From the NCBI RefSeq assembly GCF_022985615.1, contig NZ_CP094965.1, positions 1 to 32,000 of the forward strand: a DNA stretch of 32,000 bases, written 5' to 3'. Each line of letters starts with the position of its first letter. Within the stretch, counting starts at the first letter, position 1. The stretch is from Candidatus Karelsulcia muelleri (lineage in GTDB: Bacteria > Bacteroidota > Bacteroidia > Flavobacteriales > Blattabacteriaceae). The position numbers were made by a program, and so were the translations under genes. Below are positions 14,047-19,336 of this stretch, piece by piece. The notes below the pieces were generated by a model, which was not told the DNA's origin, did not search any database, and saw nothing but the letters and a program-made list of their open reading frames with translations.

Positions 14047-14121
14047 GGGTGATTAGCTCAGTTGGTTCAGAGCATTTGCCTTACAAGCAAAGGGTCACTG
14101 GTTCGACTCCAGTATCACCCA
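14047..14121 (+). tRNA. tRNA-Val (TAC)
   Basis: 75-nt cloverleaf folded by hand: acceptor gggtgat/atcaccc, anticodon loop cttacaa, T-loop ttcgact. It starts directly after the mnmE stop. Confidence 0.9.
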
Positions 14122-14163
14122 AATAAATGTATCATCACCCAAATGTATCATGTTCACCCAAAT
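14115..14163. repeat. Triplication of the tRNA-Val 3' acceptor end (tcacccaaat, period about 20 bp)
   Basis: tcacccaaat occurs at 14115-14124 (the genuine tRNA end), 14135-14144 and 14154-14163. Confidence 0.9.
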
Positions 14164-14168
14164 AATGT

Positions 14169-17100
14169 TTGTTTATGTTTTTAATATTCAATATAGAATT
14201 TTATAAATATAATATAATTAACAGATTATCCTGGATAATCTATAGTCTAGATTTTAAGATCTTAGAATTTAAATCTAAATTCAGAGGGAAGTCTCTAAAG
14301 AAGTATCTTATTAAATTTCTTGATCACATAAAAATAAGTAAAGTAATTATTGGTTATAATATTTATTTATTATTACAATTCCTGAACCAATTCAGAAATA
14401 AGGAATTATTTCTTAATGATAATCTATTAAGAGATACTATATTAAAGAATAAATATATTATTGATCTACAAAGTCTTTCCATAAGGCTTTTTAGTATTTA
14501 CAATAATAAGATTAGATGGCCTAAATTATCTGAAATTTATAATTTACTATTTAAATCATCACTAATAACTGGAGTACTAATAACTGCTAAATGTTTTTTT
14601 AAATTAATTCTTAATCAGACAAGATATATAAAAAAAATACAATTGTCAGAACAACAACCAACATCAACTAAAAATTTTATATTAGCTAAAAAATATACAA
14701 GTAATAATATTAATATTAAAAAATATTATTATCATATACATAATCATTCATCGTATTCGATATTAAATTCTAGTATAGATATAGATTCTTTAGTAAGAAA
14801 AATAGTGAAATATAAGATGCAAGCTATTGGTTTAACTGATTATGGAAATATGATGGGGGTAGTACAATTTATAAACACTATAGAAAATTATAATAAAATC
14901 TTTAATTTAAACATTAAACCTATAATTGGATGTGAATTTTATATATATAATAAAGATCAAGAGAAAGAAGATCATAATAAAGAGAAGGATAAATATCATC
15001 ATCAAGTTTTAATAGCTAAAAATTTAAAAGGTTATTACAATCTAGTTAAGTTATGTTCTTTAAGTTATATAGAAGGCTATTCTGTAGGTCGACCTACAAT
15101 AAATATTAATTTAATTAAACAATATAAAGCTAACTTAATAGCTTTAAGTAGTGATAGCAGGTCTGAAATTTCTTTTTTTATTAAAAATAAGTATCTTGAA
15201 GCAGCCGAGAATAAAATTAAATGGTGGTTCAAAGAATTTGGTAAGGATTTTTATATAGAAATTTTTAGACATGGCTTAGAAGTCGAAAATGAAATTAATA
15301 AAATTTTATTAAAGTTTTCTAATATATATAATATACCTTATATTATACAAAATAATAATTTTTATCTAAATAAAAAAGAAGCTGAAGTTCAAGATATTTT
15401 ACTATGTCTTAAATATGGAGAAAAACCGGGAATGAGAATTGGATTAACGAGTCAAGAACATTATGTAAAATCCAAATCATTAATGTATGATTTATTTTCT
15501 AATTTTCCAGAAGGTTTCAAAAACTTGAATGAACTTTTTACAAAGATTGAAGGCTTTAAAATTGCAGAAAGTAGAAATTTTCCAAAATATTATTTTCATA
15601 ATCTTAAATATCATTATAATAATACATTAAAAGAAAATATAGAATATTTTGAAAATAAATATTTAAAAGAACTCACTCTAAAAAAGGTTAAAGCTAAATT
15701 AAAAGTAGCTAAATTAAAAGTAGCTAAATTAAAAGTTGTAACTACTAAAATAAAAACTCGTTTAGATTTTGAATTGAGAATTATAGAAAGAATAAATTAT
15801 CCTGGATATTTTTTAATTGTAAGAGATATTATAAAAAAAGCTAGAAAAATAGGAATATTGGTTGGTCCAGGAAGAGGTTCTGTAGTTGGGTCTTTAGTGG
15901 CTTATTGCTTAGATATAACTAGAGTACATCCAGTTAAATACAATTTACTTTTTGAAAGATTTTTAAATAAAAGTCGCTTAATTTTACCTGATATTGATAT
16001 AGATTTTGATGATAAAGGAAGAGAGCAAATAATTAAATGGTTAATTAATAAATATAGTGGAATTAAAGTGTCTCAAATAATAACTTATGGAACTTTAGGA
16101 GCAAAATCAGCTTTTAGAGATGCTGCAAGAGTATTAAATTATCCTTTTCAAGAAATAAATACCCTGTCAAAATTAATGCCGAATTTTAGTTTGGAATTTT
16201 TATTTCGAACAAAAAATAAAGACTTAATAAGTCTATTAAATAATAGAGAGTATAATAATCTTTTATTAATAAAAAAAGAAATTAAAAAAAATAAATGTTT
16301 AAAAAAAATATTCGATCTAGCTATGAAAATAGAAGGAAATATAAGAACATTTGGAATACATGCTTGTGGTATTTTAATTACTCAATATGATATTCGGGAA
16401 TATTTACCAATTATTTGTTCTAAATATTCTAATTGTTTAGTAACTCAGTATGATAATAAAATAATAGAAAAAATAGGACTATTAAAAATAGATTTCTTAG
16501 GGTTAAAAACTTTAAGTATAATAAAAGATGCTTTAAAGATAATTAATAAAAAGAAATATAATATATACGATATAAATAATATTCCTCTTACAGATGAAAA
16601 AACTTTATCCTTATTTAAAAGTGGAAAAACAACAGCAGTGTTTCAATATGAATCATCAGGAATCCAAAAAAATTTAAAGAAATTAAAGCCAAGGAATTTT
16701 GAGGATTTAATAATAATGACTGCTTTGTATCGTCCTGGTCCCTTGAAAAACTTATATAATTATATAGATAGAAAAAACGGAATACAACCAGTTATATATG
16801 AATTAGCAGAATTAGAAGAATATTTAAAGGAAACTAAAGGTATAATTATTTATCAAGAACAAGTAATGCTTATAACACAAAAAGTTTCCAATTTTAATAA
16901 AGCTGAAGCTGATATCTTAAGACAAGCAATTTCTAAAAAAAATAAAGATCTATTAGATTCAATGAAAGCTAGATTTATAGAAGGAGGAATTAAAAAAGGT
17001 CATTTTAAACAGATATTATATAATATTTGGGATGCTTGGGAAAATTTTGCATCTTATGCATTTAATAAATCTCATTCAGCAAGTTATACTTTTTTATCAT

Positions 17101-18068
17101 TTCAAACAGGTTATTTGAAGAGTCATTTCCCGGTTGAATATATGTCATCTGTTTTAAGTCATAACATGCAAAATATAAAAGAAATTTCTTTATTAATAAA
17201 AGAGTGTAAAAGGATGGGATTCAAAATTTTAATACCGAATATAAATTTAAGCAATTATAAATTTGGAGTAAGTAAAAAAAAATCCATAAGATATGGATTA
17301 GGTGCGATTAAAGGAATAGGAAAGACTTCTATAAAAAATATTTTAAAATATAGAAAAAAAAGAAAAAAATTTACTTCAATTTTCAATCTTGTAAAATCTG
17401 TTAATTTAAGATTAGTTAACAAAAAAGTCTTAGAAAATTTAGTTCTTTCTGGTGCCTTGGATGTCTTCAAAGAAATTCATAGAGCACAGTATTTTGTAAA
17501 AGATAAAAAAAATCATAGTAATATGATTGAAAAAATAATAAAATTTGGTATAAAATACCAAAAGTTAAAGAAACATAGAAAAAGTACATTATTTAATAAT
17601 ATATGTGATATAGATATATTAGAACCTAAGTTTAAAAAATGTAGAAAATGGAATCATTTAGAAAAACTAAATAATGAAAAAGAGGTTTTAGGTTTTTATC
17701 TATTTTCTCATCCCATAGAGAAATATAAAAAAAAGATAAAAAAAATTACCGATTTAAATATAAAAAAGCTAAAACAATTAAATATAAATATAAATATAAA
17801 AAAGCTAAAACCAAGTGAAACTAAATTTACTATTTGTGGAATGGTTTCTCATATAGAAATAAAGAAATCTATAAATAATAGAAAATATTTATTATTTACA
17901 ATTGAGGATCAATCAGATTTTGTAAACTTTTTGTTAATTGGAAAAAAGTATTCTTTTTATAAAAAGAAGATTAAATTAAACAAGGTTTTGATTATAGATT
18001 TAATCATTAAAAAGAATTATTTACAAAAATATTTCTATAAAATAATATCAATACAAAATATTAATTGA
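14169..18068 (+). CDS. dnaE: DNA polymerase III alpha subunit with an N-terminal degenerate epsilon-like (DnaQ-fold) extension
   Basis: 1299-aa ORF. The PHP motif HIHNHSSYSIL lies at about aa 190. Other blocks are GPGRGSVVGSLVAYCL, PDIDIDF, GIHACG and YRPGP. TTG is at 14169 and the first ATG at 14175. It ends in TGA. Confidence 0.95.
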   Translation: MFMFLIFNIEFYKYNIINRLSWIIYSLDFKILEFKSKFRGKSLKKYLIKFLDHIKISKVIIGYNIYLLLQFLNQFRNKELFLNDNLLRDTILKNKYIIDLQSLSIRLFSIYNNKIRWPKLSEIYNLLFKSSLITGVLITAKCFFKLILNQTRYIKKIQLSEQQPTSTKNFILAKKYTSNNINIKKYYYHIHNHSSYSILNSSIDIDSLVRKIVKYKMQAIGLTDYGNMMGVVQFINTIENYNKIFNLNIKPIIGCEFYIYNKDQEKEDHNKEKDKYHHQVLIAKNLKGYYNLVKLCSLSYIEGYSVGRPTININLIKQYKANLIALSSDSRSEISFFIKNKYLEAAENKIKWWFKEFGKDFYIEIFRHGLEVENEINKILLKFSNIYNIPYIIQNNNFYLNKKEAEVQDILLCLKYGEKPGMRIGLTSQEHYVKSKSLMYDLFSNFPEGFKNLNELFTKIEGFKIAESRNFPKYYFHNLKYHYNNTLKENIEYFENKYLKELTLKKVKAKLKVAKLKVAKLKVVTTKIKTRLDFELRIIERINYPGYFLIVRDIIKKARKIGILVGPGRGSVVGSLVAYCLDITRVHPVKYNLLFERFLNKSRLILPDIDIDFDDKGREQIIKWLINKYSGIKVSQIITYGTLGAKSAFRDAARVLNYPFQEINTLSKLMPNFSLEFLFRTKNKDLISLLNNREYNNLLLIKKEIKKNKCLKKIFDLAMKIEGNIRTFGIHACGILITQYDIREYLPIICSKYSNCLVTQYDNKIIEKIGLLKIDFLGLKTLSIIKDALKIINKKKYNIYDINNIPLTDEKTLSLFKSGKTTAVFQYESSGIQKNLKKLKPRNFEDLIIMTALYRPGPLKNLYNYIDRKNGIQPVIYELAELEEYLKETKGIIIYQEQVMLITQKVSNFNKAEADILRQAISKKNKDLLDSMKARFIEGGIKKGHFKQILYNIWDAWENFASYAFNKSHSASYTFLSFQTGYLKSHFPVEYMSSVLSHNMQNIKEISLLIKECKRMGFKILIPNINLSNYKFGVSKKKSIRYGLGAIKGIGKTSIKNILKYRKKRKKFTSIFNLVKSVNLRLVNKKVLENLVLSGALDVFKEIHRAQYFVKDKKNHSNMIEKIIKFGIKYQKLKKHRKSTLFNNICDIDILEPKFKKCRKWNHLEKLNNEKEVLGFYLFSHPIEKYKKKIKKITDLNIKKLKQLNININIKKLKPSETKFTICGMVSHIEIKKSINNRKYLLFTIEDQSDFVNFLLIGKKYSFYKKKIKLNKVLIIDLIIKKNYLQKYFYKIISIQNIN
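15693..15737. repeat. In-frame 15-bp x3 repeat in dnaE (AKLKV x3)
   Basis: gctaaattaaaagta occurs at 15693 and 15708, and as a near-copy at 15723. Confidence 0.9.
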
Positions 18069-18371: not shown

Positions 18372-19336
18372 ATGCTAAATTTTAAAATTTTCCTTAAAAA
18401 ACTTAAGGACAAAATTGATTTAAAAAAAAAAAAATATATATAGCAGTAAGTGGTGGAGTCGATAGTTTAGTTTTATTAGATCTTTTTTTTAGAATAAAAG
18501 ATCTTAGAATAAAAGATCTTAAAATAGAAGTACTACATTGTAATTTTAAACTTAGAGGAGCAGAGTCCGAAGAAGAAGAAAATTTAATAAAAAAAATTTG
18601 TAAAAAAAAAAAAATACTTTTACATACTAAAAGTTTTAATATAAGAAAAAAGTCATCTAAGCAAATTTTGGCTAGAAAATTAAGGTATTTATGGTTTAAA
18701 AGAATGTTAAAAACAAATTATTTTAATTATATTGCTTTAGGTCATCATCTTAATGATTCAATAGAGACAATATTTATTAATCTGATCAGAGGTACAGGGA
18801 TAAAAGGGATAAAAGGAATAGGTTTTAAGAAAAAATATTTAATAAGACCTTTATTAGATTTTACTAAAACAGAGATTTTATCTTATGCAAAAACCAAGAA
18901 AATAAGTTGGATAGAAGACAGTAGTAATATAAATGAAAAATTTCTAAGAAATAAAATAAGAAAAATACTTAATAAACTATTAAGTAATGAAGCTTATTTG
19001 GGAATAAAAAAATCTTTTCATATTTTAAAAGATGAATGTTTAATGATTAATAATCATCTAAATATTATTAAAAAATATATTTTTTTAAAAAAAAATATAA
19101 AAGAAAAAACTTTAAGCTTAAAAAACTTATTTAATCTTCATCCCATGAAAATTTATTTATATAAAATCTTAAAAGATTATTATTTTAATAATATTAGAAA
19201 TTTGATGAAAATAATAATTTCTAAATCTGGGAAGAAAATAAATTCAAAAAAATCCTATTTTTCTATAAAAAAAAAAAATAAACAATTAATTTTATATCGA
19301 AATAAAAAATATGAAAAGAAAAATATTTCTAGATAA
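18372..19336 (+). CDS. tilS: tRNA(Ile)-lysidine synthase TilS, interrupted by a frameshift in poly(A)13 (18422-18434)
   Basis: ATG at 18372 opens MLNFKIFLKKLKDKIDLKKKK and stops at TAG 18441. The adjacent frame is open from 18419 to 19336 and carries the PP-loop IYIAVSGGVDSLVLL and then LGHHLND. The ORF track shows only 18668-19336. Confidence 0.8.
18491..18520. repeat. In-frame 15-bp tandem duplicate in tilS (RIKDL x2)
   Basis: agaataaaagatctt occurs at 18491-18505 and 18506-18520. Confidence 0.9.

Follow-up and report, generated by a model that had tools for sequence, protein, structure and literature searches.

A probable vestige of a fused DEDDh proofreading exonuclease at the N-terminus of DnaE in planthopper-type Karelsulcia

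The dnaE locus and its N-terminal extension

We analyzed a 32,000-nucleotide stretch of the Candidatus Karelsulcia muelleri (hereafter Sulcia) genome (NCBI RefSeq assembly GCF_022985615.1, contig NZ_CP094965.1, positions 1 to 32,000 of the forward strand), here called the window, and focused on dnaE, which encodes the alpha subunit of DNA polymerase III, and on the residues that precede its PHP domain. The window is ~22% GC over all 32 kb. Its dnaE product is 99-100% identical to two K. muelleri DnaE records (P0001 and P0002), and the next-nearest relatives in a protein search come from Sulcia genomes of 118-160 kb, including isolate DICMUL. The window genome is a planthopper-type Sulcia of ~156 kb, the type described in PMC10333215 and PMC12992758. 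A search of genome contigs with the polymerase body returned a single true relative, the DICMUL Sulcia (L011); the census of exonuclease-domain states given below was taken from the protein-search hits, not from the contig search. The local gene order (M42 peptidase, mnmE, tRNA-Val, dnaE, tRNA-Asp and tRNA-Lys, tilS) is common to all relatives examined, and the mnmE, tRNA-Val, dnaE neighbourhood is shared with the locus of a Sulcia that carries an intact exonuclease fusion (L010) as well as with L009 and L001-L008.

The dnaE open reading frame (ORF) opens at TTG 14169 (1299 aa), right behind an in-frame TAA at 14163-14165, and the ATG at 14175 (MFLIFNIE...) is the start conserved by alignment in every strain that carries the N-terminal extension. 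Residue numbers of the window DnaE follow the TTG numbering. Pfam placed the PHP domain from residue 189, followed by DNA_pol3_alpha, finger, HHH_6 and OB domains, and the protein scored 1029 bits against NCBIfam PRK05673 (cut-off 1002); all parts of the DnaE1 core (PHP, Pol III alpha, fingers, (HhH)2 and OB) are thus present. The PHP motif HIHNHSSYS starts at residue 189 (nucleotide 14733) with 186-188 residues ahead of it, in agreement with the ~186 counted in the original prediction, which was made from the sequence alone. The extension is joined to PHP by a linker within one open frame, 14175-18068. An unnoticed frameshift or split gene is ruled out, since this frame is single and identical in a 99%-identical strain. 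Public gene calls differ over whether the extension belongs to DnaE: P0002, a 100% identical protein, is annotated as 1141 aa from an internal TTG at 14643, inside the linker, and P0001 and others from the upstream ATG.

Table 1. Features of the dnaE region in the window.
Feature	Position	Strand	Description	Basis
tRNA-Val(TAC)	14047..14121	+	directly 5' of dnaE; fixed landmark	ARAGORN, sequence, alignment
dnaE	14175..18068	+	DNA polymerase III alpha, DnaE1 type; 1297 aa from the conserved ATG	ORF list, Pfam, NCBIfam, relatives
Putative degenerate DEDDh (epsilon/DnaQ-like) exonuclease remnant	14175..14618	+	residues 3-150	family HMM, hhalign, alignments, AF2/Foldseek, omega
Exo I position	14190..14198	+	N8-I9-E10 where intact relatives have an invariant D-T-E; FNIE against FDTE	
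Exo II position	14352..14372	+	G62-Y63-N64-I65-Y66-L67-L68 against invariant G-H-N-x-x-F-D; IGYNIYLL against IGHNIYFD	
Exo III region	14511..14597	+	IRWPKLSEIYNLLFK...TGVLITAKCF against KWPTLTELYKKLF..AHDSKSDVLATSKCF	
Linker between remnant and PHP	14619..14732	+	residues 151-188, 38 aa, low complexity	omega ~0.74-1.4
PHP domain	14733..15368	+	degraded metal site	alignment to Mycobacterium tuberculosis (Mtb) DnaE1 7pu7/5lew

The original prediction held that the replicase appears to carry a fused epsilon-type exonuclease domain, one that is probably catalytically dead, and it named profile search, structure prediction and the ancestry of the fusion as checks. A hidden Markov model (HMM) built from 60 intact non-Sulcia domains matched residues 36-157 of the window protein with 36 bits (E=2.5e-13, single target), and hhalign of a profile of nine degenerate sequences against 15 intact ones gave a probability of 98.7% (E=3e-16, 142 columns). 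The profile check therefore bears the proposal out, and chance similarity of the N-terminus to an exonuclease is ruled out by these E-values. A match to MscL in the Pfam and NCBIfam scan of residues 1-192 (E=0.16) was dismissed as spurious. When intact homologues were included in the alignment, an AlphaFold2 (AF2) model of residues 1-158 reached a predicted local distance difference test (pLDDT) score of 79 and a predicted template modelling (pTM) score of 0.73. The top Foldseek matches of this model in the PDB were all DEDD exonucleases, namely the PolC-type exonuclease 2p1j (E=3e-4), the Pol II exonuclease domain, ExoI, PolC and TREX2, at template modelling (TM) scores of ~0.45-0.58 only. 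The intact relatives match 2p1j and DnaQ 8h18 by sequence. For a model built with intact homologues, the structural comparison is compatible with a DEDD fold.

The protein search found PF00929 ahead of PHP in Sulcia with genomes of 245-285 kb (DnaE of ~1403 aa), as well as in Blattabacterium and dozens of free-living Flavobacteriia (1435-1550 aa). The annotation "bifunctional alpha/epsilon" stands on some of the fused DnaE records, the Sulcia label being "putative bifunctional DNA polymerase III alpha/epsilon". Judged from these sequences, the intact exonuclease-DnaE1 fusion is the ancestral state in Flavobacteriia, Blattabacterium and large-genome Sulcia, which answers the ancestry check in the affirmative.

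Residue correspondences were taken from an alignment to 15 intact homologues, which reproduced each pairing of N-terminal segments with DnaQ motifs that had been proposed, including that of YIIDLQSLS with IIDTKEKS. The five DEDDh residues (D6, E8, D97, H159 and D164 in P0021 numbering) are invariant in 15 of 15 intact sequences; at these positions the window has Asn8, Glu10, Leu68, a deletion in place of the histidine, and Gly135, a loss of four out of five. Exo I, a D-x-E motif in the family, has exchanged its Asp for Asn and kept its Glu, and ~14 aa behind it (TTGLP...NW) are deleted. In Exo II the catalytic Asp has become Leu68 and the His Tyr63. The H-x4-D signature of Exo III has disappeared with the AHDSKSD segment: its His falls in a deletion and its Asp corresponds to Gly135 (14571-14573). 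A longer form of this alignment sets RWPKLSEIYNLLFK...TGVLITAKCFF against KWPTLTELYKKLF..AHDSKSDVLATSKCFF. A second deletion in the remnant removed ~30 residues (IIKPEGFEIPFNSTKIHGIS...), a segment that carries a beta strand and substrate contacts in DnaQ-type enzymes. About 45 core residues are missing. With four of five catalytic residues and ~45 core residues lost, two-metal hydrolysis should not be possible, and we conclude that the domain is, as its motifs predict, catalytically dead. Since all three DEDDh motifs are broken, it should be classed as the degenerate ortholog of an exonuclease, not as an exonuclease. The profile, alignment and structure-model results together support the original proposal of a dead epsilon-type domain fused to the replicase.

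Reading frame, constraint and loss in relatives

The remnant is free of stops over 187 codons, where each of the five alternative frames has 8-34. Shuffling the sequence 20,000 times with its composition preserved never gave a stop-free version (mean, 18.7 stops), and the frame is open across deep divergence in 11 of the 11 protein clusters that have the remnant. Between residues 3 and 217 the window DnaE lacks any Met. We next compared substitution rates with four relatives using Nei-Gojobori counts and bootstrap 95% intervals. The nonsynonymous rate (dN) of the remnant exceeds that of the polymerase body by a factor of 2-2.7. Its ratio of nonsynonymous to synonymous change (omega) is 0.44-0.61 in the deep comparisons, with lower 95% limits of 0.26-0.39 and upper limits of 0.73-1.04; between 96.5 and 100% of bootstrap replicates fall below 1, and the upper limit does so in three of four pairs. 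The polymerase body gave an omega of 0.25-0.29, so that the ranking body < remnant < linker is consistent, and the linker evolves about neutrally. We infer that amino-acid constraint persists on the remnant at roughly half the strength seen in the polymerase body.

Several relatives have lost the remnant outright. In L001-L003 (genomes of 138-146 kb; DnaE 82-85% identical to the window), dnaE begins within ~27 nt of the end of tRNA-Val, and its product has 11-15 residues ahead of PHP. P0018, from a 138-kb genome of the other planthopper subclade, has only ~28 residues ahead of PHP. The 190-kb leafhopper Sulcia retain ~41-44 residues there, which correspond to the last two helices of the domain (KWPT.TELYK and FFELLRI). 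In one of them (L009 1550-6579, CP093899.1), where ~44 residues precede PHP, the gap between mnmE and dnaE is 86 nt, which rules out a split-off "dnaQ" ORF upstream. Clean deletions that moved the start codon to just before PHP have therefore removed the remnant at least three times, and its deletion in sister strains and in the 190-kb Sulcia indicates that it is dispensable.

In a neighbour-joining tree of the polymerase body, the planthopper-type sequences form one long-branched clade in which no member has an intact domain, and the 190-kb clade lies inside the intact-exonuclease Sulcia, beside P0020 and P0031. In the most parsimonious order, which rests on a distance tree of one protein, the domain was inactivated once, at the base of the planthopper clade, and was later deleted completely on two occasions inside that clade; the leafhopper lineage independently deleted nearly all of it. 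The planthopper clade is said to have co-diversified with planthoppers for ~263 million years (PMC12992758). P0031, on a 67-kb contig and close to P0020 and the 190-kb clade, has intact Exo I and Exo II, shows a shortened spacing at Exo III (VHDSDVL against AHDSKSDVL), and has lost nearly all of its linker; it may be an intermediate in domain loss.

Other proofreaders and the tempo of mutation

PHP domains can themselves proofread through a trinuclear site with nine ligands, and mutation of D23 or D226 abolishes this activity in Mtb DnaE1 (PMC5636811). Measured against these nine conserved ligands (five His, three Asp/Glu and one Cys), the window PHP keeps four (H191, H193, E256 and H278) and has lost five, with N200, Y225, D329, N396 and F398 at the positions of Mtb DnaE1 D23, H48, C158, D226 and H228. 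At the D23 position, S or Q is found already in the relatives whose exonuclease is intact, consistent with the report that the PHP site is variable in Bacteroidetes (Timinskas, PMC3919608). The window PHP domain is thus predicted to be disabled as a proofreader, which leaves the DnaE polypeptide without an intact proofreading site in cis. In the second planthopper subclade (P0014-P0019) the first His of the PHP H-x-H-x-H is an Asn (NIHNHS), a decay beyond the state of the window.

A six-frame search of the 32-kb window with both exonuclease profiles matched the dnaE ORF only and revealed no second DnaQ-like ORF. Karelsulcia replication and repair genes have been listed as dnaE, dnaN, dnaX, holA, gyrAB and mutSL, a list without dnaQ (PMC12016543), and Sulcia-MSEV is said to retain dnaE and dnaQ (Waneka et al. 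2021, PMC7952229). The dnaE loci of 190-kb Sulcia that we examined have essentially no exonuclease domain, and the statement that dnaQ is retained in the 190-kb Sulcia-MSEV may be a carry-over of the "alpha/epsilon" label.

The original prediction also tied the loss of proofreading to the extreme AT bias and to slippage in this stretch. GC content at the locus is 23.2% in the 271.6-kb Sulcia with an intact domain (L010), 22.6% in 190-kb Sulcia and 22.4% in the window; the explanation of AT bias fails, since Sulcia that keep the exonuclease intact are equally AT-rich. For the polymerase body, Tajima relative-rate tests gave 176-245 changes specific to the planthopper Sulcia lineage, compared with 68-80 for Sulcia that have an intact exonuclease (p<=1e-11), which corresponds to 2.5-3 times faster evolution of DnaE in the planthopper clade. 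By contrast, the 190-kb clade, in which the domain is deleted, showed 59 changes against 59 when compared with P0021, indicating no acceleration, and only a small one relative to its closest relative (25-33 against 9-22). Since this clade lacks the domain and has barely accelerated, the faster evolution of the planthopper lineage is compatible with, and not specifically explained by, loss of proofreading, in a comparison that leaves population size, mismatch-repair loss and time uncontrolled.

The homopolymer frameshift in tilS (18372-19336) was found as described: the poly-A run at ~18411-18422 has one A fewer than in the 99%-identical strain, and the window keeps in frame only an ORF at 18668-19336, as compared with an intact gene of 321 aa at 14168-15133 of L008. 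The 1-nt loss cannot be assigned specifically to absent proofreading. Slippage repeats, likewise, are common in this stretch as claimed and are not attributable to exonuclease loss. A 19-nt tandem repeat at 14115-14173 copies the tRNA-Val 3' end (TCACCCAAAT...) plus spacer and reaches the dnaE start; its copy number is 1 in L004, 2 in L005, 3 in the window and 4 in L008. Within dnaE, a perfect 15-nt tandem repeat in three copies (15692-15736; AGCTAAATTAAAAGT) adds two AKLKV units relative to the 99%-identical P0001 and looks like an in-frame slippage expansion within an essential gene. A 36-nt tandem repeat in two copies near the 3' end (17755-17826) yields an insertion found in the window only (QLNININIKKLK) and in none of the aligned relatives. 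At the C-terminus (~17990-18068), all planthopper-type Sulcia DnaE proteins are ~85 residues shorter and miss the domain after the OB fold, which is kept in intact-exonuclease Sulcia, 190-kb Sulcia, Blattabacterium and free-living Flavobacteriia; the planthopper-type replicase is therefore eroded at both ends.

Interpretation and comparison with known systems

We consider it highly probable that residues ~3-150 of the window DnaE are the vestige of an N-terminal DEDDh 3'-5' proofreading exonuclease whose fusion to DnaE1 is ancestral in Flavobacteriia and other Bacteroidota. A single inactivation at the base of the planthopper clade would have left the domain as an in-frame N-terminal leader, and it would be carried along because the only start codon precedes it and an essential enzyme follows it. 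If translation starts upstream, and with no Met before residue 217, a stop or frameshift in the remnant would destroy DnaE. Point mutations could then erode the remnant only as long as it stays readable and harmless, and its removal would need a precise deletion that creates a new start. What constraint is left probably stems from a need to fold compactly or to stay harmless beside PHP. With no intact proofreading site in cis, fidelity in the planthopper lineage would rest on base selection by the polymerase and on whatever repair or host factors exist.

Several results weigh against this interpretation or limit its reach. The Pfam and NCBIfam scan of residues 1-192 gave no RNase_T/PF00929 match, and the profile of the degenerate family matched no PDB sequence. 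AF2 run on the nine degenerate sequences alone found no confident fold (pLDDT 42), and that model was not used for the fold search; the confident model leans on intact homologues and so speaks for compatibility with the fold, not as proof of folding. At 22% GC, Nei-Gojobori estimates are only approximate. The remnant has an omega below 1 and has persisted across a deep clade, which could mean that it is still functional; "vestige" would then be too weak a word. Finally, the search for a stand-alone dnaQ covers the window, and the other ~124 kb of the genome lie outside it.

In the strongest competing explanation, the dead domain is kept as a pseudo-enzyme with a non-catalytic structural job: it could, for example, pack on PHP, help to stabilise alpha, or touch DNA or the beta clamp. 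Such a job would parallel the structural roles of the inactive PHP domain and of the epsilon subunit in E. coli Pol III, and bootstrap intervals for the remnant that mostly exclude 1, persistence of the domain across a clade as deep as that of the planthopper Sulcia, and core motifs that are invariant across both planthopper subclades (K..SK..IG.NI...L, IID, WP/MP and F...L) are what it would lead one to expect. The compact DnaQ-like fold that AF2 can still build, the retention of exactly the last two helices in 190-kb Sulcia and the presence of dnaN nearby in the 99%-identical strain can be read in the same way. However, at least two planthopper sublineages, otherwise 82-85% identical in DnaE, have deleted the domain completely and show no visible compensation. 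The raised dN of the remnant and an identity of just ~25% between the two subclades also count against it. Part of the constraint is accounted for simply because the polymerase can be reached only by reading through the remnant, and the linker, read by eye only, holds no clamp-binding-like motif (QL[SD]LF-like). On balance we regard a retained structural job as rather unlikely.

Two further explanations would dispense with a translated, dead domain altogether. One is that dnaE starts downstream, for example at TTG 14643, so that 14169-14642 is a non-coding fossil. The annotation of P0002 from that codon and the sister strains that work with a start just before PHP would agree with this; yet ~19 stops would be expected where the remnant has none, the other frames are full of them, the frame is open wherever the remnant occurs, omega is below 1, and the ATG is conserved at the same place behind tRNA-Val in a gene whose long form most records annotate. 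We therefore think an untranslated remnant very improbable. The other is that the domain is an active exonuclease with a re-wired catalytic site, for which one can point to Glu10, the Exo I carboxylate, and to the Exo II Asn, both of which remain in the window clade. Against this, the lost DEDDh residues include the general-base His and are all invariant in intact relatives, and a deletion has taken out the segment that holds the HGI motif and the substrate-binding beta strand. Moreover, the residues that survive vary among planthopper Sulcia (NIE in the window, IDLG or IDLV in P0012/13 and LDYK in P0014-17), and such differences by subclade are what drift would be expected to leave, not a re-wired site. 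We give this last explanation almost no credence, and a translated vestige of the fused exonuclease remains our preferred reading.

A bolder extension of the vestige reading is conceivable, and we put it forward tentatively, as something that could be true but that we would not bet on: the planthopper-type and, independently, the 190-kb leafhopper Karelsulcia may have been replicating for tens to hundreds of millions of years without any bacterial proofreader (no DEDDh domain, PHP or stand-alone epsilon), with a fidelity that is unusually low or supplied by the host, and with the surviving dead domain under purifying selection as a structural pseudo-exonuclease. Sulcia is the textbook slowly evolving, structurally stable insect symbiont, and models of mutation-rate differences among symbionts rely on inventories of replication and repair genes. 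If the extension were true, inventories that count dnaQ as retained in Sulcia (for example in Sulcia-MSEV) would inherit the annotation of a vanished domain. The results bear on those models in any case: in whole Sulcia lineages the sole recognisable proofreader is a dead remnant or gone, with the PHP back-up dead as well. The stepwise trimming from intact, to dead but translated, to deleted amounts to a dated natural series that bears on how much proofreading loss contributes to rate acceleration (2.5-3-fold in the planthopper lineage, hardly any in the leafhopper lineage) and on compensation by the host. An annotation trap comes to light as well: labels of the "alpha/epsilon bifunctional" kind and pseudogene rules based on 60% length each conceal that a domain has been lost. 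The decay of the remnant is ordinary gene decay, yet it leaves an enzyme without a recognisable proofreader of its own.

The fusion itself is already known. Bacteroidetes DnaE1 carries an N-terminally fused DEDD exonuclease with a linker of ~60 residues (Timinskas et al. 2014, NAR, PMC3919608), and Banos-Mateos et al. (2017, PMC5636811) count it among three cases in which the PHP proofreader was independently replaced. The window protein comes from the same phylum, has the same order of exonuclease-type domain, linker, PHP, Pol3 core, HhH and OB, and is orthologous to these proteins (48% identical to intact Sulcia DnaE and 37-44% to DnaE of Blattabacterium and free-living Flavobacteriia); the PHP metal site, too, is already degraded in that group. 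It differs in the loss of four of five catalytic and ~45 core residues, in a domain that Pfam fails to recognise, in its 38-aa linker and in the missing C-terminal ~85 aa. What we describe is domain-level reductive evolution of a described fusion and no new mechanism. In the literature searched, a limited library that offers no proof of novelty, no paper describes decay of the fused exonuclease in Sulcia.

By profile and structure-model comparison, the remnant probably belongs to the same fold family as E. coli DnaQ (epsilon) and the internal exonuclease of PolC (DEDDh, PF00929). Unlike epsilon, which acts in trans, and the PolC domain, which lies inside PHP, it is N-terminal, in cis and predicted to be catalytically dead. 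A parallel among insect symbionts is the whitefly symbiont Portiera, in which, according to Sloan and Moran (2013) as cited in PMC10333215, loss of dnaQ proofreading is tied to genome instability and expansion. On that second-hand account, both are obligate endosymbionts that lost a replicase proofreader during genome reduction; Portiera appears to have lost a separate gene, whereas the fused domain of Sulcia decayed in place and left a translated remnant in genomes that are tiny and syntenic. [quoted passage not shown] In both cases a proofreading module without an active site stays in the replicase, and the PHP domain of the window DnaE is a further instance with the same count of altered ligands. 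The E. coli PHP is, however, indispensable as the docking site of epsilon, whereas the Sulcia remnant has been deleted repeatedly from a gene that was itself kept.

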